From a virus: a DNA stretch of 64,000 nucleotides. The translations under genes and the position numbers were made by a program. The stretch lies in the IMG/VR virus record IMGVR_UViG_3300031994_000034. One strand, 5' to 3'. Under the pieces are notes generated by a model, which was not told the DNA's origin, did no database searches, and saw only the letters and a program-made list of their open reading frames with translations. Positions 1,400-60,700 of this stretch are shown here, piece by piece; position 1 is the stretch's first letter, and each line of letters opens with the position of its first letter.

Positions 1400-1444
1400 G
1401 AATACTCAGAATGCTCCGAGCAATCAGAGTAATCCGAATAACCA
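1400..1444 (+). repeat. 9-bp periodic array GAATACTCA GAATGCTCC GAGCAATCA GAGTAATCC GAATAACCA
   Basis: Read directly. It sits in the leader just upstream of ATG 1454. Member of the dispersed GAnnAnTCn family. Confidence 0.85.
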
Positions 1445-1453
1445 TAACAGCCT

Positions 1454-1840
1454 ATGACAACGAAAGAACTTATCCCGGCACCGATTGACAACAAGAACCT
1501 GATGGAAGACGCCTTCGAGGATGACGTGTTCCAAGACTTCTATGCAGCACCAGACCACCGCAAGCGCAATATGCGCCACCTCATTGGGATGCACCGCGAG
1601 TGGGGCGGCGAGTTCGGCTGTGCTATCGTAGATGCCAAGTGGCACCATGCCGACAATATCGTCTGCATCAATGTACTGGCCGCGCCCCCTGCGGAGGACT
1701 TCGACATGGTGCGCAAGGAGGTGTATGCCGCCGCCGCAGACACCTTCAAGAGCTGGCAGTGCGAGGATAACCCCGGACTGGTGGTGAAAACGGAGGTACG
1801 CGATGCGACGCTGATTGTGACATTCTATTTCGAGGTGTGA
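1454..1840 (+). CDS. hypothetical protein
   Basis: 128-aa ORF. Its stop overlaps the next start (ATGA at 1837). Confidence 0.65.
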   Translation: MTTKELIPAPIDNKNLMEDAFEDDVFQDFYAAPDHRKRNMRHLIGMHREWGGEFGCAIVDAKWHHADNIVCINVLAAPPAEDFDMVRKEVYAAAADTFKSWQCEDNPGLVVKTEVRDATLIVTFYFEV

Positions 1841-2031
1841 TGACAACGAGAGCTATCAACGCAGCACTGCTCGCCGGAAAGGTGGTGGTGCTCAGGGACG
1901 ACCCGCTGCTGTGTATCGTCCCCGACCTGTGGGGCGAGCTGGTGGTGGTGAGCCGAGGGCAGGAACCCTTCGACACCCGACCGGCTACTCCGAGCGACAA
2001 ACGAAAAGCGGTCATCCTAATCAATTCATAA
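1837..2031 (+). CDS. hypothetical protein
   Basis: 64-aa ORF coupled to the upstream gene through an ATGA overlap. Confidence 0.5.
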   Translation: MMTTRAINAALLAGKVVVLRDDPLLCIVPDLWGELVVVSRGQEPFDTRPATPSDKRKAVILINS

Positions 2032-2078
2032 TTCATAATTCATAATGCACAATTCATAATTCACAATTCATAATTTAC
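2023..2078 (+). repeat. tandem heptamer array (AATTCAT/AATTCAC/AATGCAC) x8
   Basis: Read directly. The last unit, AATTTAC, abuts TATG of the gene at 2080. Confidence 0.9.
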
Positions 2079-2079
2079 T

Positions 2080-3546
2080 ATGACAACAATGAACTACAAC
2101 ATCGTCAAGACTGCTGAGGGCAGCATGACGACGTACCGAGTGGTCGGTGCGGAACAGGCGGACAATCAGGCTATCTGTCAGGCTCTGACGGAGGCGGCCA
2201 AGGATGTGTGGCAGTACCTGACGGCAATGCCCGGTGCCTATACCGCCACCGAGATGAGAAAGACGGACCTTAGCCTGCGCAACGGATTGGAACTCCCCAT
2301 GGAGTTGCACACGCTGCGTGTGGAGTGCGGAAAGTTCAACCTCTGTGTGAAGCCCATCGACGACTATGGGAAGCCAAACTACAGCACTATCTTCCGTGTG
2401 CTGACCGAGTTTGAGAAGTTGGCTCGTGTGAAGCAGGGCGACCGCGCTGTGTTCACGGTGGGCAAGGAACTGGGTGCGCTGGTGTGCGAGGCTCGTGTGG
2501 TGTTGCCAAGCGACATGAAGGCCATCTGCGCCTGCTGCGGTGACGACCCCCTGTACCCTTCGATGAGCTATCCCGCCCTCGACCTCGACCGCCGTTGCAT
2601 CGTGGCTACGGACGCTGTGCTGATGGTGGCGAAGAAAGTCACCGTAGCCTCTATTCACTACGAGGACAAGGTACCCGAGACGTTCTACCTGCCCAAGGAG
2701 GTGGAGCGGATGCAGGGTGAAGTGACGGTCCGGCTGTATGAGCAGGGCTGCACGGTCACGGACCAGAAGGGCACGGAGGTGAGCGTGGAGCATGAGAGGC
2801 CTTATCCCAAGTGGCACACGGTATGGCCGCCGTTGCGCGGTGGCATGACCCTCGTGGACAGCAAGGCATGGACAAAGGTGGTGAAGAGTGCCATGAACGG
2901 GATGCCGCAGAATAGCAAGTTGAAGGACGAGTCGCTGTTGCTGACCCACTATCCCGCATCGGCCAACCTCACGCTGAGGGGCTATGATGGTGCAGAGATG
3001 GTGAACGAACAGTGTATCACGGACTGCGTGGCGACCGACGAGGTACCCTACCGCATAGGAGTGTACGCACCGCGACTGCTGAAAGCCCTGGCCTTGCAGC
3101 CCAAGACGATGTGGATGGGATATTCGGAGTATGACACGCGGCCTACCCGCCTGGTGATGGAGAACGCAGAGGCGGAGATGGTGGTGGAACTCTATCGGTA
3201 TGACGTGGACGACCTGCGCGATGCGCTGATGCCGACGGATGAGGAGTATGTGGTGAGCGACACCCGCCGCCTCTATCACTGCTACGACAAGGACGGCTGG
3301 CTGCTGGAGCGGGTGGAAACGAAATATCCCACCTGTGGAGAGCTGAAGACTCAGAGTAATCTGAGTACTCCGACTACTCAGAGGACTCTGAGGGCTCGGA
3401 GAACTCCGACTACTCAGAGTACTCCGACTACTCCGATTACTCAGAGTACTCCGACTATTCGGACTACTCCGACTACTCAGACCACCGCACCACTATCTCT
3501 CGCTGACCGACTGCGCGAGGCCCTGCGGGCACGACTGGCAGCGTGA
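2080..3546 (+). CDS. hypothetical protein; weak sliding-clamp-like resemblance; C-terminal tail built from a 9-bp repeat
   Basis: 488-aa ORF. The segments 'CIVATDAVLMVAKK' and 'RPYPKWHTVWP' loosely recall DnaN-type motifs (low confidence). The C-terminal S/T/P/Q tail is encoded by the array at 3345-3483. Confidence 0.7.
   Translation: MTTMNYNIVKTAEGSMTTYRVVGAEQADNQAICQALTEAAKDVWQYLTAMPGAYTATEMRKTDLSLRNGLELPMELHTLRVECGKFNLCVKPIDDYGKPNYSTIFRVLTEFEKLARVKQGDRAVFTVGKELGALVCEARVVLPSDMKAICACCGDDPLYPSMSYPALDLDRRCIVATDAVLMVAKKVTVASIHYEDKVPETFYLPKEVERMQGEVTVRLYEQGCTVTDQKGTEVSVEHERPYPKWHTVWPPLRGGMTLVDSKAWTKVVKSAMNGMPQNSKLKDESLLLTHYPASANLTLRGYDGAEMVNEQCITDCVATDEVPYRIGVYAPRLLKALALQPKTMWMGYSEYDTRPTRLVMENAEAEMVVELYRYDVDDLRDALMPTDEEYVVSDTRRLYHCYDKDGWLLERVETKYPTCGELKTQSNLSTPTTQRTLRARRTPTTQSTPTTPITQSTPTIRTTPTTQTTAPLSLADRLREALRARLAA
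3345..3483 (+). repeat. 9-bp periodic array, about 15 units (GAGTACTCC GACTACTCA ...), in-frame inside a CDS
   Basis: Read directly. It translates as TPTTQS-type repeats. Confidence 0.9.
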
Positions 3547-3548
3547 GC

Positions 3549-3618
3549 AATTCATAATGCACAATTCACAATGCACAATTCATAATTCACAATTCATAAT
3601 TCATAATTCATAATTGAC
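3549..3618 (+). repeat. tandem heptamer array AATTCAY x10
   Basis: Read directly. The last unit, AATTGAC, abuts TATG of the gene at 3620. Confidence 0.9.
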
Positions 3619-4108: not shown

Positions 4109-4167
4109 AAAGACAATTCATAATTCTTGCGCCGCTACGCTCTGCAAGCGAACAAGTTCGAGCGCAT

Positions 4168-4188
4168 AATTCATAATTCACAATTTAT
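4168..4188 (+). repeat. heptamer array AATTCAT AATTCAC AATTTAT
   Basis: Read directly. It abuts ATG 4189. Two more units lie at 4116-4129. Confidence 0.8.
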
Positions 4189-4590
4189 ATGGAAAAGATG
4201 ACTAAACAACAGGCTATTCAATACATCACGGACCTGATGGCGACCATTCAGGCAGCGTACTTCAAAGGACGAATGGAGGGGCATACGCTGTGGGTGCATG
4301 AGAGAATGGACGACAGTGCGGCTATCAGCATTGACCTCTACAACTTCGGAGGTGACGGCAAGCCGGTGTGCGAAGGTCTGCTGCCTTGCACCGTCACCTA
4401 CGACGACAGCTCGCAGGGTAAAGGTTGGCTCTACTGCATGTGCTACAATCCCGACGATGTGACGCCCCTGACATTCATCTTTGACAGCGATGCCTTCGGC
4501 GACATCAACCTCGACCCGGAGGATGTACACGAAGATGTGCTGCAGAACATCGCCACATGGCTGGAACAGGCTATGCGGCCTATCAACTAA
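4189..4590 (+). CDS. hypothetical protein
   Basis: 133-aa ORF. Confidence 0.65.
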   Translation: MEKMTKQQAIQYITDLMATIQAAYFKGRMEGHTLWVHERMDDSAAISIDLYNFGGDGKPVCEGLLPCTVTYDDSSQGKGWLYCMCYNPDDVTPLTFIFDSDAFGDINLDPEDVHEDVLQNIATWLEQAMRPIN

Positions 4591-7747: not shown

Positions 7748-7909
7748 ATGACTGGCATCTATGGCCTCACCTTGCGGGCCTCGGACGGACGGGAACGACG
7801 CACGTTGGCGTGGCTCCCCACCGAGGCTATCCGGCAGGACTTCTACGAGAAAGCCCGACGCAACGGGATAAGTATAGTTATCAATTCACAATTCACAATT
7901 CACAATTAA
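7748..7909 (+). CDS. hypothetical protein
   Basis: ATG two nt after the preceding stop. The 3' end runs into a heptamer array. Confidence 0.45.
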   Translation: MTGIYGLTLRASDGRERRTLAWLPTEAIRQDFYEKARRNGISIVINSQFTIHN

Positions 7910-7917
7910 CAATTAAA
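7883..7917 (+). repeat. heptamer array AATTCAC x3, AATTAAC, AATTAAA
   Basis: Read directly. Confidence 0.85.
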
Positions 7918-14017: not shown

Positions 14018-14126
14018 GCAGCCGGAACCTGTGGCCCGAGAACGCAAAACTGCGCCACTCCCTGTTTTTACGTTCTTGGAATATACGGATTAGACGGATT
14101 TATAATTAACCATAAAAGCTACAACA

Positions 14127-15009: not shown

Positions 15010-15092
15010 GGGAGCGAAAGCCTGTAAATGGTGCAACAGGCATTAGTAAAACTTGCCGGTGAGCGAGGGTTCGAGTCCCTACACTCCCACCA
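15010..15092 (+). other. tRNA-like element (acceptor stem, T-arm and CCA present; no canonical anticodon arm)
   Basis: T-arm GAGGG-TTCGAGT-CCCTA at 15065-15081. The 3' acceptor strand CACTCCC-A-CCA pairs 6/7 with GGGAGCG at 15010-15016. A D-position hairpin gcctgt/acaggc has a GG-containing loop. The 23 nt in the anticodon position do not form a 5-bp stem. Confidence 0.4.
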
Positions 15093-15106
15093 TTGATAAT
15101 AAAATT

Positions 15107-18100
15107 GTGAACAAGAATAATTTCGACATATTAAATGGCCTGAGCCTCGTGGAGGTGATGCGAGGGTGGGGCAGGGTGCCGATGCGCGACGGTGATGCGT
15201 CGGCATCGTTCCTGTGTCCGTGGCATGATGATCATAGACCGTCGCTCATCGTTGACAAGGTGGTGCGGAAGGGTGCGACGGACCTCGGGTTTAAGTGCTT
15301 CGCTTGCCACGAGGAGGGCTTCGGGGCTGTGCAGTTAGCTGCACGGCTGATGGGTCTGCCGTCGGGTAAGGTGCCCGACGCGGACCGTGAGCGTGTGCTG
15401 ACAGAACTGGCTACGCGCTGCAACGTGGAGTTGGAGCAGGAGGAGGGCGAGAAGCAATATTACAACACACTGCGGACACAGATTATCGGTTGGGACGCCT
15501 TTCGCCAGGCCGAGGTGCAGTATGCTGAATGGGATGGCAAGGAACCGCAGTTCGAGCGCGGAGAGTGGACGGAAGAAGGACTGAAGGCACTGGGATTCAA
15601 GGTGGCGCTGACAAGCCGCAAGATGAAGAAATCGGAATACACGGAGTACTCTGGGTATTCCGAGAAGTCTGAGATTCAGCAAGGCGATATGCTGACGCAG
15701 TTCGACCCAGACACGGGCGAGGCGCTTTACTGGTGCTCGTTGGGTGCCGGGTTCTATCGCGGACCGAAGAAGGCAGAGGCACGGACTATCCGGGCCTGGG
15801 GTGCGGAAGTGGAGCGGCTGTTTGGCGTGGAGCCGGTGGCGAGGTTCATCCGTCGGAAGGAGAATGAGAAAAAGGGCGGCTACTACGTAAGCATCGTGAG
15901 AGCCACAAAGAACTATCCTATCTTCATGTTCCGCTATGCGTGGGGCGTGAAGAAGTATGAACCGAAGGACTTCTACGGCACGACGAAGTGGACGTGGTGG
16001 TGTCTCGCGGAAGATGCCGACTTGGAACACCGTTGGTATGCTGATGCCGGGCTGACGGACGCGCTGGAAGGTGCGGTGCCGGAGGTGGACGAGCGGCACC
16101 CCTACGAGAAGCAGAAGGATAAGGACGGAAAGGAAACGGGCAAAGTGAAGTTTGGGCGCGTGGTGCTCTGTAGCGGTCCGAGGGATGCGATGGCGGTGTA
16201 TAGCCATAGCAATGCCCATGTGGTGTGGCTGCACTCTGAGCAGGCGGGCTTTGACAAGAAGAACGGCAACGTGCGGCCTAACCGCTGGCTCCGGGCTTTT
16301 ATCAAGAAGTTGCTGGGCGTGACGAAGGAGGGCGGGCTTTATGTCTGCTACGACGAGGATGCCACGGGGCTGGCGGCAAGCCAGGCTATTGCACTGAATA
16401 ATCCGCAGGTGCGGTGGCTGAGACTGCCGAAGGAGCTGGGGATGATCCTTGCGGGAAAACCGCAAGGCACACTGCAGAAATCGCTGAAGGACGTGACGGA
16501 CTTTGTGACGCGCTTCGCGGAGGTGGAGGGGCTGATGCCCGCCGACGTGCAGCACGACGACCCGGTGGAGTGGTTCGACAATGCGTTGTTCGACACGCCG
16601 ACGTGCCAGTTCTGGCAGTATGAAAGTGAGCGGAAGGACAAGGACGGTTCGCCGCGCAACAGATATAAGTTCGACCTGCGCAATACACCCGTGTTTCTCC
16701 GTGCGAGGGGCATGGTGCGAAAGTATGTGGAGCAGGGCGATGACTCCTATTCGCGCTTTTTCTTGTTGGGCAACGACCATACGTTCTGTGAGTTATTCGC
16801 GGGACAGAAGGGGAGCAACAAACTCGTGGCACAGAGCCGTGACCTCATGGCGGAATGGCTCAGGGCGCACAAAGAATACAACGACGAGAAGGGTGCGCTC
16901 TCACGCGCTATTTTTTCTGCGAAGATGGAGCAGAGCGTGATGGAGAGCATCGAGACGGTGGACTTCGACGACAAGAGTTTTGGCGAGGACTTTGACCACT
17001 TCTTCTTCAAGAATGTGGCAGTAAAGGTGACAGCCGACAAGATAGAGAAGGTACCGTACAGCAGCATGAAGTGGTGGACCAGTGCCGACGCTATCCTTGA
17101 CGGTAAGTTCGAGGTGGTGCCGCAAGCGTGGCGCGTGGAGGTAAATCCATTCTACGAGCCGGAGCGCATCAAGCACGAAGAGATATTGCAGACCGCCAAG
17201 ACCAGCGAGGAACGGGCACAGGAAAATATGCGCTGGGATCAGTGGGAGGCGCTGTGGAAGTACCGTCTCGTGACAGACAAACCCATAGGCGAGATGCCTA
17301 TGCACTTCCGCTTCCTGTATAACACATGCCGCATCTTCTGGGAGAAGGAGCAGTCGCAGGAGCTGACGAAGACGGAGAAGCAGGTGCAGGATATGTACTT
17401 CATCGCCATGCTCCATGCCCTCGGCTCGGCGTTGGTAAGACACCGCTCCGCCAACCGTCAGCAGTTCATCCACATCACCGACAACGGTACACGGCGAGAG
17501 GATTTGGCATCGGGTGGCACGGGTAAGACCGCCATCTTGGAAATGCTCTCGCTCGTGCGTTGTTCCCTCGCCATCGACGGCAAGGCGCTGGAAGGCTCGA
17601 ACATCATCCTGGAACAGGAACTCGGAAAGATTGTACCGGGGCTACACAACGTGGTCTGTCTGGACGAACTGCCAGCCGGGTTCTCTCCCAAGAAGATGTA
17701 TAACATGCCGCTGGGCGTGACCTCACGCGGACTGTATCACGGCTCTGTCCGGCTCACGGGCGACGACCTGCCGAAGTTTGTGGTGGCCAGCAACGAGCAG
17801 TTGGACCTAAGCAGCGACTCTACGAGCCGTCGCATCTATCAGATCCTCGTCGGCGACTGGTATCATCCGCGCAGCATGGACGGTTCGCGTCCGGCACACA
17901 CACCTGCCGACGACTTCCGCAAGGACTACCACGTCAAAGAAGTGTCGCGCAACCTGCCCGCAACTTTGCTCAACGAGGCCAGGAACCTCCTGCTCGGCTG
18001 TGTGCAGCTCTTCTTCCAACTGCCCGACGAGACCCTGCGCCCGCCACGTGACAGCCGTGCCCTGCTGCGTCAGGCACTGGCGGCCAGCAAGGATGAGCAG

Positions 18101-18568
18101 TTCACGCTCTGGATAGCGCAGTACCTCGCTGACAAGCGGCACCTCGGTGCGCCCATCGCCCAGCGCGAACTGGCCATCTCGCTGCTCGACTACTGCGGAA
18201 TCAGCGTAGGCGAGAAGACCCTGAAGGCAGCCTACAAGCGCATCCGCGACAACCTGACCGACTACATCAAGACCAGCATCTACGTCGTGGACCCGCCCGT
18301 GGTGTTGCTGACCCCAACGGACAGAGAACGTGGATTCCGGCAGTGCGCGGCATGGCAATACCCCAAGGCCTCCGACGGCTACAGCATAGCCCTCAACGAC
18401 AAGGGCGAGCGGATGCCGCGCGAACTTCGCAACAGCACAAGGGTATATTACTTCTATGTCAAGAGTCGCATACCGAGGCACTTCTACAGCCCCGACCATG
18501 TGGGCGACAAAGACTATGTGCAGGCGGCGCCGGAGAAGGATCCGGAGGCGGGCGAGCAATCGGAATAA
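15107..18568 (+). CDS. DNA primase (CHC2 zinc finger plus Toprim) fused to a P-loop helicase/NTPase
   Basis: Motifs 'CPWHDDHRPS...CFACHEEG', Toprim-like 'VVLCSGPRDAMA...YVCYDEDATG', Walker A 'GGTGKTA' and Walker B-like 'VVCLDELP'. Start placed at the in-frame GTG 15107, because the track start at 15053 lies inside the tRNA-like element. Confidence 0.85.
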   Translation: MNKNNFDILNGLSLVEVMRGWGRVPMRDGDASASFLCPWHDDHRPSLIVDKVVRKGATDLGFKCFACHEEGFGAVQLAARLMGLPSGKVPDADRERVLTELATRCNVELEQEEGEKQYYNTLRTQIIGWDAFRQAEVQYAEWDGKEPQFERGEWTEEGLKALGFKVALTSRKMKKSEYTEYSGYSEKSEIQQGDMLTQFDPDTGEALYWCSLGAGFYRGPKKAEARTIRAWGAEVERLFGVEPVARFIRRKENEKKGGYYVSIVRATKNYPIFMFRYAWGVKKYEPKDFYGTTKWTWWCLAEDADLEHRWYADAGLTDALEGAVPEVDERHPYEKQKDKDGKETGKVKFGRVVLCSGPRDAMAVYSHSNAHVVWLHSEQAGFDKKNGNVRPNRWLRAFIKKLLGVTKEGGLYVCYDEDATGLAASQAIALNNPQVRWLRLPKELGMILAGKPQGTLQKSLKDVTDFVTRFAEVEGLMPADVQHDDPVEWFDNALFDTPTCQFWQYESERKDKDGSPRNRYKFDLRNTPVFLRARGMVRKYVEQGDDSYSRFFLLGNDHTFCELFAGQKGSNKLVAQSRDLMAEWLRAHKEYNDEKGALSRAIFSAKMEQSVMESIETVDFDDKSFGEDFDHFFFKNVAVKVTADKIEKVPYSSMKWWTSADAILDGKFEVVPQAWRVEVNPFYEPERIKHEEILQTAKTSEERAQENMRWDQWEALWKYRLVTDKPIGEMPMHFRFLYNTCRIFWEKEQSQELTKTEKQVQDMYFIAMLHALGSALVRHRSANRQQFIHITDNGTRREDLASGGTGKTAILEMLSLVRCSLAIDGKALEGSNIILEQELGKIVPGLHNVVCLDELPAGFSPKKMYNMPLGVTSRGLYHGSVRLTGDDLPKFVVASNEQLDLSSDSTSRRIYQILVGDWYHPRSMDGSRPAHTPADDFRKDYHVKEVSRNLPATLLNEARNLLLGCVQLFFQLPDETLRPPRDSRALLRQALAASKDEQFTLWIAQYLADKRHLGAPIAQRELAISLLDYCGISVGEKTLKAAYKRIRDNLTDYIKTSIYVVDPPVVLLTPTDRERGFRQCAAWQYPKASDGYSIALNDKGERMPRELRNSTRVYYFYVKSRIPRHFYSPDHVGDKDYVQAAPEKDPEAGEQSE
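15635..15679 (+). repeat. 9-bp periodic array inside the primase CDS (GAATACACG GAGTACTCT GGGTATTCC GAGAAGTCT GAGATTCAG)
   Basis: Read directly. It translates as EYTEYSGYSEKSEIQ. Confidence 0.8.
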
Positions 18569-18589
18569 TCAGAGTATTCAGAAAATGGA
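18554..18589 (+). repeat. 9-bp periodic array spanning the primase stop and the next start
   Basis: GAGCAATCG GAATAATCA GAGTATTCA GAAAATGGA, read directly. Confidence 0.75.
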
Positions 18590-20514: not shown

Positions 20515-21639
20515 ATGTCTGCGCCGAAGTCCATAAGCATTTCTCCCCTGCCGGCCCTGCCGAAGTGCTGGAGTGACCTCTCGTGGCAGCAGCTCTGCCA
20601 GTGTTGGGAGGCGAAGATGCGCTACGGCGGCAACCCCGACGTTGCTCGGGCGGCGGCGTTGTTGAAGATGGTCGGGCTGGGGCGGAGTAATCAGAAAGCT
20701 CAGATAGACCCCCTCACCGGCGAGACCAGCCACATTCTCTCCGCTGCCGACGGACGCCTCTTCACCGTCACTCCCCGCGAACTGGCATGGATGGCTCAAA
20801 AGGCACTGCCCTGGTTTGACTATCCCTACGGCGACATGGGCGAGAAGGAGGAACGCGACGAGCAGGGAAAGATTACGAAAGAAGGGCGCGAGGCAGTGAG
20901 CGGTTACGTCAGTGATTTTCGCGACGCGATGATCCTGCCGGAGACGGAGGTGGTTATCGTGGGCGACAGGCTGTTGGCCGGCAGCGAATGGGAGCGCATG
21001 AGCGATAAGGAAAGAAAACTCTTAACTCTACACTCTAAACTCTCCACTCTCCACTTCTCCCTTCCCCAGATGGCGTGCAATAACATCACATGGCAGCAGT
21101 ATCGCTCCATGCAGGCACTGGCCCCGCAACTCTTCCACGAAGGGAACAGCGAGGAGGAAGCCCTCGACCTGCAGGCGCAGTTCTTGGCCTACTGCCTTGT
21201 GCCAGCCAAGGAGGATACCGCCACCGACGACCGATTTCGTCCGCGCCGCATCTACCGTTACGAAGCGGAACGTGCCGAGCAGACCATCCCGTTCTGGCGG
21301 GAGCGGTTAACCCGGATCAGCCAGAATACTCAGAGTAATCAGGACACTCAGACCGTTCTCCCCCTCTTCCACATCTGCTTCCAGGCCTATCACACCGCCG
21401 TTCTCTACTACGAGAAGGCCTATCCTCTCCTGTTCACTGATATCGGTAAGAGCCAGGAGTTCCGCGACGCCCTGCAAGGCGAAGTCGGCACCGTCAACTC
21501 CGTAATGAAATACCAGGGCTACTCAGATCCTCAACAGGTCTATGATGCCAATCTCCCCATCATCCTCGATACGCTCAACACGATGGCAAAAGAGGCTAAG
21601 GAGATAGAGAAAATGAACGCTAAAATTAAGAAGAAATAA
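20515..21639 (+). CDS. hypothetical protein
   Basis: 374-aa ORF. It contains a short 9-bp array (21324-21350, QNTQSNQDTQ) and a CT-rich low-complexity tract. Confidence 0.75.
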   Translation: MSAPKSISISPLPALPKCWSDLSWQQLCQCWEAKMRYGGNPDVARAAALLKMVGLGRSNQKAQIDPLTGETSHILSAADGRLFTVTPRELAWMAQKALPWFDYPYGDMGEKEERDEQGKITKEGREAVSGYVSDFRDAMILPETEVVIVGDRLLAGSEWERMSDKERKLLTLHSKLSTLHFSLPQMACNNITWQQYRSMQALAPQLFHEGNSEEEALDLQAQFLAYCLVPAKEDTATDDRFRPRRIYRYEAERAEQTIPFWRERLTRISQNTQSNQDTQTVLPLFHICFQAYHTAVLYYEKAYPLLFTDIGKSQEFRDALQGEVGTVNSVMKYQGYSDPQQVYDANLPIILDTLNTMAKEAKEIEKMNAKIKKK

Positions 21640-35423: not shown

Positions 35424-35427
35424 AGCT

Positions 35428-40395: not shown

Positions 40396-40434
40396 CTGCA
40401 ATATCGCCAAATCCCTTACCGAAATCAAGGGCAG
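40396..40434 (-). promoter_or_regulatory. late promoter-like motif P1 (CTGCCCTTGAT-N21-ATTGCAG)
   Basis: One of six copies of the CTTGCCCTTGAY ... ATTGCRG pattern, 45 nt upstream of start 40351. Confidence 0.5.
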
Positions 40435-40438: not shown

Positions 40439-40475
40439 CTTGCCCTTGACGCACGAGGGAGGTTGCGGTATTTTT
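40439..40475 (+). promoter_or_regulatory. late promoter-like motif P2 (CTTGCCCTTGACG-N17-TATTTTTA)
   Basis: Back-to-back with P1. Their upstream boxes form the palindrome TCAAGGGCA-gagtcc-TTGCCCTTGA. Confidence 0.45.
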
Positions 40476-40649
40476 ATGGCAGATAACTTTAACGCAACTA
40501 TCATGGCAAACGACACAGCGACCATCGACCCCCGCTACCTCACCTACAACAAGAACGAGGTGCAGGCGTTGCTCGACAAGGTGAACGCCGAGACCGTGGC
40601 AACGGAAGAAAGTGTAAGAAACATCGTGACGAACTATCCAACAGAGTGA
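40476..40649 (+). CDS. small protein upstream of the DGR target (57 aa)
   Basis: ATG (MADNFNAT...) within track ORF 40236..40649. The C-terminal 'ESVRNIVTNY' is shared with the next ORF. Confidence 0.5.
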   Translation: MADNFNATIMANDTATIDPRYLTYNKNEVQALLDKVNAETVATEESVRNIVTNYPTE

Positions 40650-43940: not shown

Positions 43941-43981
43941 GACGAAGACAGAGGAGCGTAGCGACGACGAAAGCGAAAACC

Positions 43982-44003
43982 GCGCGGCCCGAAAGGGCTG
44001 CGC
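43982..44003 (+). other. GC-rich hairpin with a GAAA tetraloop downstream of VR
   Basis: 9-bp stem (gcgcggccc / gggctgcgc, one G-U pair) with loop GAAA, 42 nt after the target stop. A second 7-bp GC hairpin lies at 44007-44025. Confidence 0.7.
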
Positions 44004-44187
44004 CCCGCCGCCGCCCAGCGGCGGCCAGCTCCCAGGGCAGAGGTGTCGCCTGCCCAACACTGAAATCCATGCCGACGGCCAGCGGCGCAAGCGAATCGGA
44101 GTAGCCGCCGTCGGTGAGGTTGATGCCCGGCAGTGTGCGCGGCGCCCCACGCCGCGACCACAGGGTTACAAGGCAGCTGCACTGTAC

Positions 44188-44302
44188 GGTGCGCGGCTTC
44201 CGGCGCGGCAACCACGTGAACAACACGAACCTGTCTCCGCTCTACGTGAACGCCAACAATGCGCCCTCGAACGCGAACACGAACATCGCGTTCGGCAACT
44301 GT
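44188..44302 (+). other. DGR template repeat (TR)
   Basis: AAC/AAT-rich copy of the VR carrying 27 adenines, located between the target gene and the RT. Confidence 0.9.
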
Positions 44303-44598
44303 AAAGCAAAGCGTCTCGCGGTTTCCCCCGCGATATTCCCAATAAGTCCTCCAGCAGCCCCGACCTGAGCCGCACGGAGGCAGGTGCAGAGCCTGGCTGA
44401 CGAAGAGAGCCGAACAACGCAAAGAAAAGGTGCCAAAACCACCAGCCGACCGGGCACAGTGCCCAGCGGTTTACCCGCTGGAATCACGCATAGCCAAGAC
44501 AGGGTAGGCTGCCGTATAGTCAAAAGCGGCAATCGGCGCACACAGGTCACACAGCGCCCGGAGGTTTCCCCACCGGGACAAAAAAAGAGAAGAAAGCA

Positions 44599-45939
44599 AT
44601 GTCCATATCCACCTGGCACAACACCCTCGCCGCCCTCCCAGCTGCCGTACACGACAGTTACATGGCCAAGACCGCTCGCCAGCGCTCTAAGCGCGAGGTG
44701 CAGCGCGTCATGGCCGATGTGGACACCTTCTGCCGCCAGAAACAAACAGAACTAAAAAACAATACCTACCGCGTAGGCCCCTACCGCCACTTCCGCCTTA
44801 CGGACAAGAAGAAAGAGCGAGACATCAGCGTACTCCCCTACTCCGACCGCTGCGTCCAGAACGCCGTCAAGGATGCCATACAGCCACTGCTCCTCCGACA
44901 GATGACCGATGATATGCTGGGAGGGCTCCCGGAACGCGGTGTTTTAAGCGCAGTGACGAGATATTCTGTCGTGAAAAAAATACGGCGACTGATGAACGAC
45001 AAATCGCTAAGATACTACCTGCAGGGCGACATCCGAAAGTTCTACGACTCCATCGACAACGTAGTGGCCATGAGGCTCATCGAGCAAAAAGTCAAGGACC
45101 AACGGACACGCGCGCTCATCAGGCAGCACATCTTCAACCAGAAGCGGCTGGCCATCGGCGACCCCTTCTCTCACCTCATCGCCAACCTCGTCATGTCCTG
45201 CGTCATCCGTAAGGCAAAAGCCAAGTATGGTCGTCGCATCCACCTCATCAACTTCGCAGACGACTTCATAGCCTTCGCCAAGGACAAAGCCACCCTTACC
45301 GCCCTCCGCAGCGACATGAACCGCTGGGCCAAAACCCTCCGCCTCCACTACAAGCCCCTCTACATCCGCCCCGTCACCCATCCCCACTGTGCCTGGCGGT
45401 TTTCCCGCCCGGCCCCCATCACCTTCTGCGGCTACCGCTTCGGCCCCGCCTACGTCCACCTCACCCGCCGCACCAAGCTCCGCTACATCCGCACCCGTCA
45501 TCGCCGCCGCTCCCTCGCCAGCTACCAAGGCATCCTCGCCGTGGCCGACACACGCCACCTCCGTCACCTCATCCAGTACAACGACAATCACCATATGACA
45601 GAGAAAATACGTCGCCCCTTCGCGGGGCGCCCCATGAAGATTGAAACACTCGAAGGCATACCACACACCATCGTCAATGTCGTCGAGAAACCGTCGCGAC
45701 AGCGCGACAGCGAAACCTACATGCACGTTCAGGCTATCGCCGACGGACTCGGACTCATCGTCTATTCCACCGCAGCATCCAAGATATGCGCCTACCTCCG
45801 TGCTGCATACCGGCCAGGAATGCCGATGCCAGACATGCGCATCGTCCACGACTGGAGCGGATTCTACTACGAAGGCACCGTCTATACCGACGCCGAGGAA
45901 GAAGAAATGATACGCAAGCAATACAACATACCCAAGTAA
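44599..45939 (+). CDS. DGR reverse transcriptase
   Basis: RT motifs 'ERDISVLPYSDRCVQNAV', 'YYLQGDIRKFYDSID', 'LAIGDPFSHLIANL' (the DGR-type [ILV]GxxxSQ block, here ending in SH), the catalytic 'INFADDFIAF', and 'FCGYRF'. Confidence 0.9.
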   Translation: MSISTWHNTLAALPAAVHDSYMAKTARQRSKREVQRVMADVDTFCRQKQTELKNNTYRVGPYRHFRLTDKKKERDISVLPYSDRCVQNAVKDAIQPLLLRQMTDDMLGGLPERGVLSAVTRYSVVKKIRRLMNDKSLRYYLQGDIRKFYDSIDNVVAMRLIEQKVKDQRTRALIRQHIFNQKRLAIGDPFSHLIANLVMSCVIRKAKAKYGRRIHLINFADDFIAFAKDKATLTALRSDMNRWAKTLRLHYKPLYIRPVTHPHCAWRFSRPAPITFCGYRFGPAYVHLTRRTKLRYIRTRHRRRSLASYQGILAVADTRHLRHLIQYNDNHHMTEKIRRPFAGRPMKIETLEGIPHTIVNVVEKPSRQRDSETYMHVQAIADGLGLIVYSTAASKICAYLRAAYRPGMPMPDMRIVHDWSGFYYEGTVYTDAEEEEMIRKQYNIPK

Positions 45940-51013: not shown

Positions 51014-51053
51014 CTTGCCCTTGATTCCCGTCCCGTATTTTGCGATATTGTCG
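51014..51053 (+). promoter_or_regulatory. late promoter-like motif P6 (CTTGCCCTTGAT-N-ATATTGTCG)
   Basis: It follows the hairpin 50991-51010 and precedes ATG 51064. The downstream box lies in the palindrome TTGCGAtattgTCGCAA. Confidence 0.45.
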
Positions 51054-51063
51054 CAAAAAGAGT

Positions 51064-52885: not shown

Positions 52886-54310
52886 TTAGCCCTTCACGTA
52901 GTAGGTCTTGCCAGACTCTACCTCGGTGTCCTCAGTCAGAGAATACACATCGCCGCTCTTCTCATACCAGCCCTGCGCAGCGGGGTTGCCAGAGGGGTTC
53001 TCTACGGCTGTGTAGGTGGGAGTCTCGTCGCCGCCACCGCCGTTGCCGTTCTCAGGAATCTCCTCGGTGAAGCGGGCCTGCAGGTCAACTACGCCACCCT
53101 TGAAGGTGTAAGCGTAAGTAGCCGCTGTGCCACCGTCCGACCAGCCGATGAAGACGTAGCCTGTCTTCGGAGTAGCCTTCACGGTGATGACGTCGCCCTC
53201 CTTGTAGAGGTCCTGAGGAGACTGGATGGCAACCGTACCCATCTTCTCGTTGTTGCTGGACACGGTGAAGATGTCTGCGATGTAGTCGCCTACAGGCAGG
53301 TCGCTGTGTGTGTTCACGGCATCGTTGGTGGCGAACACCTCCGGACCGAAGTCGCGGATGCGTGCCGTGGCACGACCGTTGGCCTGGTAGTCGAACACGC
53401 GGAGGTCGGTGTTCACCTGACCAATCGAGATGAGTGCCTGGTTCTCGCGGTTGTCGCAGATGAACTCGAGGTTGCCCTCTACGCTTGCGATGAGCTGGCC
53501 ACCCTTACCCATAGCGGAGCTGGTCTTCAGCACCACGTTAGGCATTTCGGCAAATTTCCAGCCGGCCGTCAACACGGTGGGAGCAATCTGAGGATAGGTG
53601 AGCATGTAGCCCTTCACGGCCTTGCGGCAGAACTCGTCGCTGGCGTAGATGTAGAGCGTCTGCTCGGGCTTCTTCATGGCAGCGGAGAGGCCGCCGTAGA
53701 AGGTGGTGAGCAGTTCGTACACCTGGTCAGCCTCCAGGCCGGTGATGTCACCGGTCTCAATGAGGTTGCCGTTCTGCTTCGAGATGGTGCCGTCGGTGCG
53801 GCGTTTGGCGATGATGGTGTAGATACCATCGTAGAGGGACAAGCCCTTCTTCACCTTGTTCTCGTTGCTGTCCTCGGCGAGGGCGCGGTTGGCGATGTTG
53901 CCGAAGAAGAAGTTAGCACGGATATCCTCTGCGAAGCGACCCGAAAGCTCGTTCAGCAGGAAGGTGGTGTGCGGTGCGCTCTCAGCGACGTTAGTCACCT
54001 CGAACGGACCCTTCTCTTTGTAGCGCTCAATACTGTCAGCGGTGTGGAGCACGATGGGTTCAACCTTTGCGGGGTTGTCCACAAACTTGCCCAGTTCGCT
54101 CGACTTCACGTTGCCGACTACGTAGGGACGTGCCTGCAGACCCTTGCGGTTGAAGATGTAGCAGGTGTCGATATTCTCGACATCCGTAGTCACCTTCACG
54201 CCCAGGTCTTCAAACATGCTGTCGGTGAGCAGGTAAGCCTTGGCTACCAACTCAGGGTGGATCGTCTCTTTGACGGTCTGAATCTGTGCAATGCTAAGTG
54301 CGTAAGCCAT
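52886..54310 (-). CDS. major capsid protein candidate with a C-terminal Ig-like repeat domain
   Basis: 474-aa ORF directly downstream of the protease/scaffold gene. The C-terminal 'YKEGDVITVKATPKTGYVFIGWSDGG' resembles the Listeria-Bacteroides repeat domain. Confidence 0.6.
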   Translation of the reverse strand: MAYALSIAQIQTVKETIHPELVAKAYLLTDSMFEDLGVKVTTDVENIDTCYIFNRKGLQARPYVVGNVKSSELGKFVDNPAKVEPIVLHTADSIERYKEKGPFEVTNVAESAPHTTFLLNELSGRFAEDIRANFFFGNIANRALAEDSNENKVKKGLSLYDGIYTIIAKRRTDGTISKQNGNLIETGDITGLEADQVYELLTTFYGGLSAAMKKPEQTLYIYASDEFCRKAVKGYMLTYPQIAPTVLTAGWKFAEMPNVVLKTSSAMGKGGQLIASVEGNLEFICDNRENQALISIGQVNTDLRVFDYQANGRATARIRDFGPEVFATNDAVNTHSDLPVGDYIADIFTVSSNNEKMGTVAIQSPQDLYKEGDVITVKATPKTGYVFIGWSDGGTAATYAYTFKGGVVDLQARFTEEIPENGNGGGGDETPTYTAVENPSGNPAAQGWYEKSGDVYSLTEDTEVESGKTYYVKG

Positions 54311-54364: not shown

Positions 54365-54390
54365 CTCTGATTACTCGGGATGCTCCGATA
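54365..54390 (-). repeat. 9-bp-type array in the capsid gene leader
   Basis: The - strand reads TATCG GAGCATCCC GAGTAATCA GAG directly after the ATTGCAG box. Confidence 0.7.
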
Positions 54391-54431
54391 CTGCAATAAT
54401 AGCGGATGCTGGCCTTTGGGTCAAGGGCAAG
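54391..54431 (-). promoter_or_regulatory. late promoter-like motif P3 (CTTGCCCTTGACC-N-TATTATTGCAG)
   Basis: It follows the terminator hairpin 54437-54455 and lies about 80 nt upstream of capsid start 54310. Confidence 0.5.
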
Positions 54432-56220: not shown

Positions 56221-56243
56221 TGTCGTCGTTTTTATGTGTTTGT

Positions 56244-56283
56244 CCGCAATTTACGTTATCCCGTCCCGTAGGTCAAGGGCAAG
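56244..56283 (-). promoter_or_regulatory. late promoter-like motif P4 (CTTGCCCTTGACC-N-TAAATTGCGG)
   Basis: Same pattern, about 25 nt upstream of start 56220. Confidence 0.5.
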
Positions 56284-56406: not shown

Positions 56407-57648
56407 TCACTTTTGCTCCGTAGTTCTGTGCGTCATCGGGAATGCCGTGAACAACTTTCTGTGCTGCTGTTCGCAAGCCTCCTTTCTCCGTCGTGCCTCT
56501 GCCGCGCAAGCACAAGCCTTGTCCTTCGCCTCCTGTTCCTCACGCGCGCGCACGTTATTATATATAGGTGTACCCACGACGGCATCGCCCAGTGCGTCCA
56601 GGTTCTCCTCGATGAACTGGCACGCCATCGCCATCGCCTGCTGTGCGTCCGTCATGCTGTCACGCCGGGCCAGTTTCGCATCCTTCTGAGAACTGGCCGT
56701 GGCGTAAGTCCCGGAACCCGAGAGCAGGGTGGTCTGCGTGATGGTCGTCCGTCGGCCCTCTACATAGAAAGCCAGGGCGGTGCGCAGTAGGCTCAGAAGT
56801 TCAGAGTACTCTGGGTTTTCCGAATACTCTGAATACTCCGAATCGCCATTGGCTACACCCACCACCGTCTTCAGTAACTTCGCCCCAATCCTCGGCTTTA
56901 GGTACGTGTTCTGACAGAACCGTATATCGCGCACCAAGGCCACGTATGCCATCCGTTCCCCTTTGATGTCCAAGTATTCATTCAGTGCCCGTGCCGTCTG
57001 GAACAAGAGGTCCTTATGCAGGTAGAACGCATCTGCCTCTGCCCACTTCTCTGCAAACCGTTTGTCGCCCTTCGCGTCGGCTTCGAGGAACAGCAGCAAC
57101 GAGTCGATGGATCTGCCAGCACTCATGTAGGCATCCTTCACCACGCGCTCCATGCGCTTCTCGTCCGTCGGCTCGTAGCCGTCGGCGGTCACGATGTTCA
57201 TGCCGCCGCCTTCGTTGAACGACACCGTGAGCAGTCCCGCCTTATGCGACAGCATCTTGTAGAACTCTATCTGCTGGCAGATACGGATGAGCCGTATCGT
57301 CGCCAAGTCCTCCTCCGACACCTCCATGTCGCCATCGGCAGCACCCTCGTAAGTCTCGCGGTAGTTGCCCTGCTGAATCTGGTCCAGCCGCTCCGTCACG
57401 TCGGCGTGAGCCAACTGCGCATCCTGCCGTGCCTTCCCCGTCGGGCGCACCGTCGTAGCGGTTATATCGACATACGTCTCACGCAGTCGGTCGTACTCCC
57501 CGAGCAGCCACTGGTACAGGCTGTTGCCCAGCAGCGGTTCTAAGGCCACCGCTTCCTCCTCTTCCAGATATCCGAAGAGTTGCTGCGGGCGGTCCCACCG
57601 TGCCGTGGGCATCATAGAGATTATTTCATTCTGTGTGGTAATAAGCAT
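56407..57648 (-). CDS. hypothetical morphogenesis protein (413 aa)
   Basis: Long ORF between the tape-measure-like and protease genes. It contains an in-frame 9-bp array (56804-56848, SEYSEYSENPEYSE). Confidence 0.75.
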   Translation of the reverse strand: MLITTQNEIISMMPTARWDRPQQLFGYLEEEEAVALEPLLGNSLYQWLLGEYDRLRETYVDITATTVRPTGKARQDAQLAHADVTERLDQIQQGNYRETYEGAADGDMEVSEEDLATIRLIRICQQIEFYKMLSHKAGLLTVSFNEGGGMNIVTADGYEPTDEKRMERVVKDAYMSAGRSIDSLLLFLEADAKGDKRFAEKWAEADAFYLHKDLLFQTARALNEYLDIKGERMAYVALVRDIRFCQNTYLKPRIGAKLLKTVVGVANGDSEYSEYSENPEYSELLSLLRTALAFYVEGRRTTITQTTLLSGSGTYATASSQKDAKLARRDSMTDAQQAMAMACQFIEENLDALGDAVVGTPIYNNVRAREEQEAKDKACACAAEARRRKEACEQQHRKLFTAFPMTHRTTEQK

Positions 57649-57654: not shown

Positions 57655-57699
57655 GAGTATTCCGAATAGTCCGAGTAATCGGAGTTATCTGATTCTGTC
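57655..57699 (-). repeat. 9-bp periodic array in the 5' leader of 56407..57648
   Basis: The + strand reads GAGTATTCC GAATAGTCC GAGTAATCG GAGTTATCT GATTCTGTC. Confidence 0.8.
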
Positions 57700-57738
57700 T
57701 GCAATATCGGCATTCCACCATGCGCGGTCAAGGGCAAG
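57699..57738 (-). promoter_or_regulatory. late promoter-like motif P5 (CTTGCCCTTGACC-N-GATATTGCAG)
   Basis: Same pattern, about 50 nt upstream of start 57648. Confidence 0.5.
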
Positions 57739-57743
57739 GAGAG

Positions 57744-57761
57744 TTCACACAGATACCACAG
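57744..57761 (-). repeat. CTGTGGTAT CTGTGTGAA 9-mer pair (- strand)
   Basis: Read directly, between the heptamer array and P5. Confidence 0.8.
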
Positions 57762-57795
57762 ATAATTGTGCATTGTGAATTATGAATTGTGAATT
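57762..57795 (-). repeat. heptamer array (AATTCAC AATTCAT AATTCAC AATGCAC AATTAT on the - strand)
   Basis: Read directly. It begins 4 nt after the stop of the tape-measure-like gene. Confidence 0.85.
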
Positions 57796-57798
57796 GAA

Positions 57799-60700
57799 TC
57801 AATATCTCTGCCCGTACCTGTTCAGTGTTTTCTTTCCGCTGTCGTAGGAATCTACCAGGCCTCCTTTGCCATAGACATCAAAGGTGGCTTTGATGCCGTT
57901 GATGCGCAAGTCCTCCAGGAGGTCGCTCTGACGATCGATGCTGGCTTGCAGGGAGGCTGCCTGTTCGGCGCTCATGCCGGCGGCAGCGCTTTCCGAATAC
58001 TCCGAGTAATCCGAGAACTCAGAGAGATTGCCGTCGGCGAAGGCCGCCACTCCCCTGCCCCTGCGACGCAAGGCGCTGATACGTCCGCCGCCGCTGAGGG
58101 TCTGTATGGCGTGCCAGATTTCGCCTTCGTTCATCGTGATTTGGCGGGTGGTGCCTGCGTCGATGATCATCTCGCGGCCTCGCTCGCCGCTCAGGTGGAA
58201 CTCTGGGCCGTTGGTGAGGTGGGTCTTCGGGCTGCGCCCCATGTAGCGGGCGCGGTAGGTCTTGCCGTCGGCGGCATCCACGTTGTATTGCCGTCCTTCG
58301 CGCAGGGTGGATGGGTCGGTAAACTCGTTCACGTTACCCTCGGCATAGGTAAGCATACCAGTAGTCAGGCGACCTGAAGCGACAGAAGATACGCCCGTGG
58401 CCTGTGCGATTTCAGATTTTGACTTGGCAATCTTGCTGGCAGCAAGGCCCATCAAGCCGCCGAGTAGCCCAGTAAAAATGGCAAAAACGGGAATAGCACC
58501 CCAGCCCAGTTGTGACCACAGCTTAGACAGGACGGAAGGCGTTTCAGCGGCCACTTGTCCCGTGGTTTGGGAGAGGTTGGTGGTCAGTGCCGTGATGGCT
58601 GCGTTACCAGCAGCCTGCACGGCAATCATACCGAACTTCTGCGAGGCCGACATATTCTCATTCGACATAGCCTGGTAGGCGATGCCGTAGAGGTTGGCGG
58701 CGACGGTCATCTTGGCGAAGGCCGACTGTGTGCTCTTCTGTATCTTCGTGTCGGTCTGAACCTGCCCCTGCGCAATGTCCTGTTGGTTCTGTAGGATGGT
58801 CTCTTTGGCGGCGGTACTGCCTTCGGCATAGGCCTGCCATGGCGATATAATTGTTTCGGCGGCGGGCGTATCGCTGGTGGGCTGCAGGGGTGAGATGCCG
58901 TCCACGCCGAAGCCGGCCCCGGCAGCTGAATCGTCGCCCGCCCCGCCTCCGGCCATTGTCGCTGCCAGTCGCAGTATGGCCTTCGTGTTGGTATCCAGTG
59001 CATCCGTGTTCGCGTCGATGCTGACGTTCTGCAGCATCGCGTTCAGCTGGTCGGTGATGGTCTCCGACATCTTCATGTTCAGGTCGTCCATCAGTTTCTT
59101 CCATGCGTCGGCCATTGCGTTGCGCTGCTCGATGTCCAGCACCTCCTGGTCGCTGAGTGTCTGGTACGATGCCTCGGCGTCCTTCGTGCCGGCGTTCTCC
59201 ACGACGATGTACTGGCCGCTGGTCGATGCGCCCGTCAGCCGCTTCTTGGCCTGCTCGGTGTAGAAGTCGGCCTGTCCCGTGTTCGATGCCTCGAAGACAC
59301 CTTGCAGTGAAGAAGCAACCAGGTCGCCCCATTCGCGCAGCGCTGTATAGAGGCGGTTCTGGCTCTCCTCCATCTGATTGGCGATGGCCACGCGCTGCTC
59401 CTCCAGCTTCTTCAGTTCCTCCGTCTTGGCCAGGTTCAGAGAGCGGCGCAGGTGCTCGGCATCCTCCAACCGGCCTTCGGCTTTCAGCTGCGCAATGCGC
59501 TCCTCGCCTATCTGACGCATACGGTTGTAGTAGGTCGTCTGCATGGCCAGTCGCACCTGCATCTGTTTGATGGCCAACTTGTCGGCCACGCGCTCGCTGG
59601 CCTGTCCTGCGCCGATGAGCGAGTTGGCCCGCTTCACCTGATCCTCGGCCAGTCCCAGTCGGCTCAGCGCCTTCTCGAAGCCGTCGCGGCGGCTCTGCGT
59701 CTGTCCCTCTGCGATGTCGGCCCACCAGATGTCGGTCTGCTTCTTGATGAGCGACGCCTCCTTCTTGATGGCATTCTGTATCTCGTCGTAGGCCGTGCGC
59801 AGCTGCGCCATGAGTGCCTGCTGCATCTGGGTGTCCCCGCGTATGGCGTCGGCCCAGGCTTGCATGCCCTGCTCGCCCATGTGGCGCATCACCTCCTCGA
59901 TGGTTGTCGAATAAGCATTCTCTGCCTCGCCCAGCATGAAGGCCGTGCGCTTCATCTCCTCGGTAGCCTGCCGGCTGTTGAAGTCGCTCATGTCGGCATT
60001 CTCGCGCATCAGGCGGTTGCGCTCGGCGGTCATGTCAGCCGTCAGTATGCCCATCGTCACCAGGTTCTCGCGCAGGTTGCTCGTGATGCCGTCGTAGGGC
60101 CGTTCCTTCTCGATGATGTCGCGGATGGCCTTCATCTGTGCGGTCACGGCCTGCTGCTGTTTCAGGAGGTCGCGCTCGATGCCTTTGTCCAGTTTGCCGA
60201 AGATGGTGCGCTGCTCCGCCTCGCTCTTCTGTCCGATGTCGTAGATGAACTTCACCGTCTTGCCGATGGTCTTCTGAATGAAGTCGGCGGTGTCGCCCGT
60301 GCGTTCGCTGAGGATGTCGAAGATGGCTTGCTGCTCCTCTTCCGTTACCTCGGTACTTTTCTTGGCGTAGAGCTTCTGCAGTTCCGCCCTGCGCTGGTGC
60401 CATTCCATTTCGTTGGCCAGCGTGCGGTTCTTCATCTCGGCCTCCGTGATACCCTCCTCCGTGGCTGCCTCCTGAATGCGCGTCTTGCGCTCCGTGTAGT
60501 AGGCATCCAGTTCATTGAGGTACGCACTCCACTCGTCCTTGATGACCTTGGCGCGAGCCTTCTGTTTGGTCGGGTCCATCCAGTCGCCCGTGTTCGTCAG
60601 ATGCTTCTCGTGCAGGGCATCCTGTATCTTCAGTCGCTCGGTATTGTACCACTCGATCGCCTGCTTCGTGTCCTTGATATTCTTGCGTGTGGCCTCGGTG

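Follow-up and report, generated by a model that had tools for sequence, protein, structure and literature searches.

A 9-bp tandem-repeat lattice shared by a phage sub-lineage and the chromosomes of rumen and gut Bacteroidales

The IMG/VR virus record IMGVR_UViG_3300031994_000034 comprises the 64,000-nucleotide stretch analysed here (the window), part of a large tailed phage in which head-to-tail arrays of a 9-bp unit lie in gene leaders, at a stop/start junction and in frame inside genes. A preliminary description, made from the letters of the window, had regarded the distribution as unlike that of any described phage element. The element is no peculiarity of the phage: the same lattice of conserved bases is abundant in the chromosomes of rumen Bacteroidales. 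The arrays are not a phage-specific control element but a satellite common to phage and host clade. With moderate confidence, we interpret them as a clade-wide, DNA-level 9-bp satellite of rumen and gut Bacteroidales and of this phage sub-lineage, without a dedicated function.

The arrays themselves are beyond chance. The pattern (GANNANTCN)x3 matches 22 times in the window, compared with 0.00 times in 100 dinucleotide-preserving shuffles, and a phase-aware scan, in which units must follow one another in phase, finds eight of the ten loci named in the preliminary description (0.5 runs in mononucleotide shuffles, 0 in triplet-block shuffles). Only one run falls outside the ten, a marginal and degenerate one of 3 units at 14078-14104. 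All ten loci are upheld, although those at 40359-40386 and 54365-54390, with 2-3 degenerate units and an indel each, are weak on their own. The consensus unit is GAGTACTC plus one spacer base, which can also be written GA[A/G/T]TA[A/C/T]TC+N, repeating with a period of 9 bp; the arrays in the window hold 2-15 such units and are reported by Tandem Repeats Finder with period 9, 18 or 27. The core of the unit is close to self-complementary, so that the lattice is the same on either strand; the palindrome TCNGA is confirmed at every unit junction. Isolated units are not enriched (8 copies of GANTANTC outside arrays, with 8.8 expected); the motif therefore exists only as arrays. These occupy at least ten loci spread over the whole window, structural genes included (Table 1), and three more lie just past the window end in L435, a contig 99.3% identical to the window (L numbers are our labels for the compared sequences). 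Replication-origin iterons, expected as one cluster near the replication genes, were rejected on this window-wide distribution.

The unit can be read in three ways: as GAn-TAn-TCn it encodes (D/E)-Y-S, in the +1 frame (S/T/N/I)(T/N/I)(P/Q/R/L), and in the third frame R/G-V/L/I-L/F. Three genes use (D/E)YS (the EYS frame) and two use (S/T/N)(T/N)(P/Q/R) (the STQ frame), and the hydrophobic R-V-L frame is never used; the frames in use are the two that give hydrophilic, linker-like peptides. We verified every translation proposed earlier, for open reading frame (ORF) 2080, ORF 20515, the primase, ORF 56407 and the tape-measure protein, and the suggestion that a period of 9 keeps reading frames intact is likewise supported. 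In alignments of homologues, all coding arrays fall in segments that are hypervariable in length and sequence. The arrays are confined to places that tolerate insertions: the leaders of genes, spacers between a stop and the next start, C-terminal regions of proteins and hypervariable linkers between domains.

Six of the nine bases are constant, even at synonymous third positions and beside diverged flanks, and the constraint or homogenising process therefore acts on the nucleic acid and not on the protein. In the STQ frame, variation at unit positions 3, 6 and 9 falls on second codon positions, and the bases that do not vary (T4, T7 and G1) are third positions at which a change would be synonymous. 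This frame needs the rarest codons of the phage (ACT 11%, AGT 10%, AAT 24%), and the array in ORF 2080 uses ACT throughout, though it is the rarest Thr codon (11% of Thr codons). When the peptide was held fixed and codons were drawn from the phage's own usage, ORF 2080 kept 1.2 motif units against the 14 observed (at most 6 in 2000 trials), and the codon choice of its array has log10 P = -33.9. The conservation at the nucleotide level that had been claimed is thus borne out, and with the excess persisting under this shuffled-codon control, the arrays are not mere coding repeats. The same resampling of the EYS-frame arrays retained 1.6-2.5 of 3-4 units. A second instance comes from ORF 20515, whose array has an orthologue at the same position (SQSNQSNRNTQ) in L403 and L430, where the proteins are 62% identical; by hand count, third positions within these arrays fit the lattice in 9/10 and 11/11 codons, whereas flanking synonymous sites are 55% identical. 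Some arrays, this one among them, are old. Filtering at the protein level is apparent too: many units of the ORF 2080 array have GAC, read as Thr, rather than the GAT of non-coding host arrays, which would be read as Ile and in which position 3 is almost never C.

Comparison with relatives, which had been proposed earlier, brought out differences of whole units as well as presence and absence. The ORF 2080 array has 15 units in the window and 10 in L158, L159 and L160, strains that are 92-97% identical, and the leader array at 54365 has 2 units in the window, 4 in L439 and 0 in L436. The arrays gain and lose whole units between close strains in the manner of a variable-number tandem repeat (VNTR). 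Under a strict definition, we counted 7 arrays in the window (64 kb), 11 in close strains (82 kb) and 3 in distant relatives of roughly 58-91% protein identity (651 kb, 33 loci). From these counts, the arrays appear restricted to one phage lineage, in which at least 10-13 sites would have been colonised. Among the three roles put forward in the preliminary description, a self-spreading microsatellite is the best fit to such variable copy number and to presence or absence among relatives.

The host side of the satellite emerged from a search with the pattern GANTAMTC x3, which has 18 plain and 3 two-fold positions and for which we estimate a handful of chance matches at most. Among bacterial and archaeal species genomes (genome_contigs), it has at least 120 matches, and the taxa among the matches listed are almost all rumen or gut Bacteroidales metagenome-assembled genomes (Prevotella/Prevotellaceae, Bacteroidaceae, Paludibacteraceae, Muribaculaceae), often with several array contigs each. 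The whole of IMG/VR (2.9 million contigs) yielded 36 stretches, several of which are relatives of this phage; the pattern is common in the metagenome set too, where the matches listed give a lower bound. A looser scan of IMG/VR with GANNANTC x3 was uninformative, returning among the matches listed mostly ordinary identical-unit coding repeats unrelated to the window.

Among the matches listed, the host loci (853 kb) contain 139 arrays of 3-16 units: 72 are intergenic, 15 run across the end of an ORF, and the 52 within ORFs read either in the STQ frame (44) or in the EYS frame (8). The intergenic ones lie between co-directional (40), convergent (13) or divergent (7) genes or at locus ends where one flanking gene is missing (12), and typically begin 2-20 nt past a stop codon, with 5-60 nt left between their end and the next start. 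Arrays stand upstream of rpsD, of a RadA-like gene and of an aminoacyl-tRNA-synthetase gene, and one directly follows the TAnnTTTG box, of Bacteroidetes type, that precedes a lipoprotein gene; all of these are chromosomal contexts. With host units oriented by their flanking genes, position 3 is C in 4/262 and position 6 is G in 2/262, even though the search pattern permitted both; an exclusion that is symmetric between the strands speaks for a property of duplex DNA. Positions 3 and 6 do not complement each other in the common host units GATTACTC, GAATAATC and GATTATTC. In the 8-kb genome pieces around host arrays, no gene family is recurrent (6 of 120 loci at the most), and no RAYT-like or other partner was seen.

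We envision slipped-strand mispairing or unequal recombination as the source of copy-number change, and template switching or gene conversion as the means by which existing arrays, in a co-infecting phage or in the host, would seed new loci; these might also grow from chance proto-units. Arrays persist only at permissive sites and in hydrophilic frames, and the phenotypic effect of any single one would probably be small, a matter of linker length or leader length. The uniformity of the lattice across loci and genomes could be due to inter-array conversion or to selection by a host factor. Several observations sit uneasily with a satellite lacking a dedicated function. Slippage and drift alone predict consensus units that are specific to each locus, but a single lattice is found in dozens of phage and host loci, and this requires a putative process, either frequent inter-array conversion or selection. 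Comparison of filled and empty leaders gave no target-site duplication and no clear microhomology, that is, no seeding event with a diagnostic junction. Three of the seven promoter-like late leaders, some 200 nt in total, carry an array, which exceeds random seeding into non-coding DNA; this excess could indicate a function. The host census, for its part, is biased by the search pattern and by its basis in the matches listed, and relies on crude ORF gene calls.

Such points leave some room for a functional reading, which we regard as possible though tentative: the lattice GA-D-TA-H-TC-N would be a previously undescribed cis-element of rumen and gut Bacteroidales that a conserved host machinery reads or actively maintains, be it a symmetric DNA-binding protein or an enzyme by which repeats are generated or homogenised. 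To exploit this machinery, the phage sub-lineage would have acquired arrays at 5-10-fold higher density, above all in the leaders of late genes and where genes adjoin, and the co-occurring heptad arrays, diverse in sequence, may be part of the same biology. Doubtful, in our estimate, is the more specific proposal that a symmetric dimeric host protein binds the lattice in the manner of MetJ, one dimer per GAnTA|TAnTC palindrome at 9-bp spacing, and that the phage recruits or titrates this factor, for example in late-gene leaders. The six conserved positions are two-fold symmetric and so are the exclusions (no C at 3, no G at 6), which favours double-stranded DNA over RNA as the substrate; conservation across loci, genomes and reading frames, synonymous sites included, and the arrays in three of the seven late leaders fit the proposal as well. 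It is harder to reconcile with the lack of enrichment of single sites, with the lack of positional conservation, and with the fact that the same leaders are array-free in most relatives, so that arrays are dispensable for late expression. Nor are the host arrays regulon-like, as they occur in 3-16 copies in all kinds of spacers, convergent ones too, in coding sequence and beside unrelated housekeeping genes, and there is no candidate protein and no gene family recurring next to them. A phage-encoded binding protein, one of the readers suggested in the preliminary description, is itself unlikely, given that host chromosomes carry the lattice and that most relatives' leaders are without arrays.

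Action at the RNA level, whereby arrays in leaders and intercistronic spacers serve as stabilisers of the repetitive extragenic palindromic (REP) type, as processing sites or as spacers tuning the Shine-Dalgarno-independent initiation of Bacteroidetes, is in our view unlikely. More than half of the host arrays lie in intergenic spacers, for the most part ones with co-directional flanking genes, starting just after a stop and ending before the next start; phage arrays begin right after promoter-like boxes; and some fold better than shuffles, namely those at 1400, 3345, 15626 and 56800 (z = -3.6 to -5.6, with -4.2 at 1400). The three late-leader arrays, however, fold like shuffles (z = +0.2 at 57655, and -0.4 and -0.4, one of these being 40359), as does the array at the primase stop (z = -1.1), and hairpin or REP-like structure was on these leader values ruled out as a general property of the family. 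Since complementarity is usually lacking between positions 3 and 6, stems would amount to 2-bp blocks; of the quasi-palindrome described earlier, the near self-complementarity of the core stands, but the symmetry is imperfect. The constraints are strand-symmetric, arrays also lie between convergent genes and inside coding sequence, and a search of Rfam with the window and nine host loci gave no match. Far less probable still are clusters of restriction or methylation targets (TCNGA at the junctions, AGTACT/GTAC in the units) acting as decoys or methylation-dependent switches. TCNGA does occur once per unit, the phage encodes two methyltransferase-like proteins, and its genome strongly avoids CTAG and GATC in a restriction-like fashion; but one protein is of the C5-cytosine type and the other of the DUF4942 type, neither linked to TCNGA, and outside arrays the observed/expected ratio (O/E) of TCNGA, 0.75, is no more extreme than those of GANTC (0.65), GGNCC (0.66) and CCNGG (0.78). 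The O/E of GTAC, 0.79, is mid-range among 4-mer palindromes and nowhere near the avoidance seen for CTAG and GATC, GTAC and AGTACT showing only a generic mild deficit, and the arrays are in host genomes too; the methylase or nuclease target suggested in the preliminary description accordingly finds little support. We give least credence to unrelated low-complexity coding repeats selected as protein (acidic EYS and S/T/P/Q linkers), with the shared DNA motif incidental. All coding arrays do lie in linkers, and the EYS peptide alone implies much of the motif, as the resampling of those arrays showed. The same lattice is nevertheless found in non-coding leaders and in a second frame that takes the rarest codons and varies at second codon positions while synonymous third positions stay invariant, and about half of the host arrays are intergenic; the codon-resampling control and the non-coding copies already contradict a purely protein-level origin.

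Set beside known systems, the satellite reading finds its nearest counterpart in VNTRs and minisatellites, which are driven by slippage and have periods that are multiples of 3. The arrays share with these the head-to-tail copies, the whole-unit differences in copy number between close genomes, the tolerance of linkers and the preserved reading frame. An ordinary VNTR, however, is a single-locus family, whereas one lattice here is found at a dozen sites of the phage and many of the host, both outside genes and, within them, in two frames, with six of nine bases held against synonymous drift. REP elements and bacterial interspersed mosaic elements, mobilised by RAYT, are similarly short, partly palindromic, dispersed, clade-specific and often located past stop codons between co-directional or convergent genes. 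Their unit is nonetheless a 20-40-bp stem-loop and they are extragenic; the unit here is 9 bp, its palindrome is imperfect, several arrays are unfolded, 5/10 phage arrays and 52/139 host arrays (matches listed) lie inside ORFs, and the element is also in a phage. The likeness to the 8-bp metbox of MetJ and to ribbon-helix-helix operator arrays (omega heptads, ParR iterons) is one of geometry only: short symmetric boxes abut in tandem, and the GAnTA|TAnTC symmetry with its symmetric exclusions at 3 and 6 agrees with this, but those arrays have a period of 8 or 7 and are confined to the promoters of a regulon, while here the period is 9, the arrays are unconfined, their copy number is highly variable and a cognate protein is only hypothetical. 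The start-associated sequences and stoperators of mycobacteriophages are also short motifs at many phage sites, upstream of starts and within genes. They are, however, single asymmetric sites of 13-17 bp, position-conserved in a cluster, linked with translation or with a repressor of the phage, and not shared with the chromosomes of the hosts, unlike the present lattice, which lies in host chromosomes, is not positionally conserved and is absent from most relatives. Literature searches for the unit, for double units, for 9-bp tandem repeats in phages and for tandem repeats of Prevotella or Bacteroides retrieved nothing relevant; a match for GGAGTACTCC proved to be an unrelated ScaI protection assay.

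Table 1. Nonamer arrays and promoter-like boxes in the window.
Feature	Units	Position	Strand	Setting
Array	5	1400-1444	.	intergenic; ends 9 nt before ATG 1454
Array	15	3345-3483 (units 3345-3479)	+	inside ORF 2080-3546; frame (S/T)(T/N)(P/Q/R), TPTTQS
Array	4-5	15626-15679 (phase-aware 15626/15635-15670)	+	variable primase linker (15053-18568); EYTEYSGYSE
Array	3-4	18554-18589 (phase-aware 18554-18580, 3 units)	+	spans primase stop and next ATG 18585
Array	3-5	21315-21359 (21315/21324 start)	+	linker of ORF 20515-21639; QNTQSNQDTQ
Array	about 3, degenerate, 1-nt deletion	40359-40386	-	5' leader of ORF 36704-40351; 9 nt after promoter-like box
Array	about 2, indel	54365-54390	-	5' leader of ORF 52886-54310 (Listeria-Bacteroides repeat protein, Flg_new_2); directly after promoter-like box
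Array	5	56803-56848 (phase-aware 56803-56847)	-	hypervariable linker of ORF 56407-57648; read as DSEYSEYSENPEYSE, including SEYSEYSE
Array	4-5	57655-57699 (phase-aware 57655-57690)	-	5' leader of ORF 56407-57648, between promoter-like box and start codon
Array	3	57995-58021	-	near C-terminus of tape-measure protein (57799-63984); SEFSDYSEYS
Promoter-like box		57700-57737	-	TGCCCTTGAC-N18-GATATTGCA(G); family-conserved; includes the ATTGCAG box
Promoter-like box		56240-56282	-	upstream of late/structural genes
Promoter-like box		54391-54430	-	upstream of late/structural genes
Promoter-like box		40396-40434	-	upstream of late/structural genes
Promoter-like box		35350-35393	-	upstream of late/structural genes
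Promoter-like box		40440-40480	+	upstream of late/structural genes
Promoter-like box		51015-51055	+	upstream of late/structural genes

The individual loci illustrate how the arrays are accommodated. The first begins about 20 nt past the T-run of an intrinsic-terminator-like hairpin (1345-1380) and has orthologues with another unit count or sequence in L158, L416 and L409; its translation in the EYS frame was rejected, there being no start codon and a stop seven codons upstream. Near-identical strains are mosaic at this point, ORF 1454-1840 being missing from L158, L416 and L409 with a junction about 20 nt past the array. In ORF 2080, the array fills the hypervariable linker between a conserved VETKYPTCGE and the C-terminal LSLADRLREALRARLAA, a conserved C-terminal helix, and most homologues have a K/P/E-rich linker in its place. 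A frameshift into the EYS frame was discarded for this gene, as a TAA in unit 2 closes that frame and homologues stay in the STQ frame for more than 100 aa. Several primase homologues at 74-98% identity carry SEYSEYSEYSE or decayed versions of it in the linker, and L004, at 86% nucleotide identity, has unrelated sequence at the position of the 15626 array. At the end of the same gene, where the C-terminus is likewise hypervariable among homologues, the TAA stop lies inside a GAATAATCA unit and the ATG at 18585 at the array's end, an arrangement with the stop in a TAA unit that recurs at 1990-2016 of L435; L004, whose homology to the window ends at 18552, is without this array.

Among the arrays on the minus strand, that of the Flg_new_2 leader is a short allele: at this leader position, L439 carries an array of 4 clean units and L436 has an empty site. 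The linker of ORF 56407 has one or more units fewer in homologues at 86-100% identity, and other relatives have unrelated acidic or Ser-rich linkers. The leader array of that ORF is identical in L435; in 26 IMG/VR relatives (L132-L157) no array of this type was found, and the leader of L436 is short and array-free. Translation through this leader array was rejected, a TAA upstream of ATG 57648 closing the frame. The gene callers of public assemblies start the ORF 56407 homologue at an internal Met (402 aa, MMPTARW...; 57610-57648 in the window) and not at ATG 57648, and should this Met be right, the leader array lies about 40 nt farther from the true start. The homology of L436 to the window stops at 58027, the homologous segment not reaching the array at 57995. 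Several homology breakpoints with relatives are within a few bases of arrays (18552, 57654 and 58027, and 19527 in L004).

The promoter-like element has the consensus TGCCCTTGAY-N18-(G/T)ATATTGCRG, also with an AT/AATTGCRG end, and 3 of its 7 copies in the window are followed by an array. The preliminary description had noted arrays right after an ATTGCAG box in three leaders; the arrangement stands, but the box is not the whole element, being the downstream end of this longer one. In most of the 26 relatives it is kept upstream of the ORF 56407 homologue and is followed by an A-rich leader of about 15-25 nt, and it may be the late promoter of the phage family. The window also contains G-free heptad arrays, in plus sense at 2022-2075, 3548-3615, 4165-4189 and 7878-7916 and in minus sense at 35399-35424 and 57764-57796, with 3.6-10 copies of CAATTCA/TAATTCA, CATAATT or CACAATT. 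They sit in intergenic spacers, either immediately before early ORFs or past a stop codon and ahead of the next late promoter-like box, and at the corresponding positions relatives carry heptad arrays made of quite different units (AGTGAAG, TTTACGA, AGTGAAT and others). The host loci that bear nonamer arrays are unusually rich in further short satellites and hold, in the same 853 kb, 73 period-7 arrays of 44 unit types, including the phage's own CAATTCA and TCATAAT, and about 20 unrelated 9-mer arrays. One host spacer, L358 3810-3990, reads (GAAAACG)x4, nonamer array x6, (GCTCCCC[C])x3, (TAACCTT)x2 and (CCGTTTT)x3; its outer heptads are mutually reverse-complementary, so that the nonamer array would lie in the loop of a long hairpin. 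At five host loci (L352 3088-3945, L363 about 2599-2850 and three others), a nonamer array is at the N-terminus of small proteins, candidate relatives of the 'four-helix-bundle / 23S rRNA intervening-sequence' family (motif HGHYRxLRVYQ).

As for the phage itself, megablast with the primase gene found 0 close relatives in GenBank, while relatives abound in IMG/VR (contigs of 45-145 kb) and in the assemblies of ENA and Logan. The label of one homologue gives a Prevotella metagenome-assembled genome as its source, and rumen Bacteroidales are the likely hosts. Recognisable genes encode the primase, the tape-measure protein, a head protease/scaffold and the Listeria-Bacteroides-repeat protein, along with the two methyltransferase-like proteins; comparison of the array-bearing proteins with Pfam and PHROGs identified only the primase zinc finger, the tape-measure protein and the protease/scaffold, and no repeat family in either database matched them. 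A complete diversity-generating retroelement lies at 41007-45939. Its variable repeat (43807-43922, 116 nt) is at the 3' end of a 977-aa ORF (41007-43940), the template repeat (44187-44302) lies 380 nt downstream, followed by the reverse transcriptase gene (44599-45939), and the 18 mismatches between the two repeats are all at template adenines (18/18). The window shows strong restriction-site avoidance: CTAG occurs 0 times, where trinucleotide counts would predict about 97, GATC is reduced five-fold (48 vs 224), and CCGG, GANTC and GGNCC are depleted to about 0.6-0.65. In L158, 15911-17344 is an IS605-type OrfB/TnpB gene that the window is without.

If the satellite reading is true, a phage and its host clade share a fast-evolving DNA satellite that enters untranslated leaders and, in two frames, protein linkers. 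Array segments would then have to be annotated with caution, as neither protein motifs nor phage regulatory boxes. The arrays could serve to mark the host range of uncultured rumen phages, and their copy number is a ready-made marker of strains. Should a dedicated factor instead hold six of the nine bases fixed, the lattice would amount to a new cis-element system in important, poorly studied gut bacteria.

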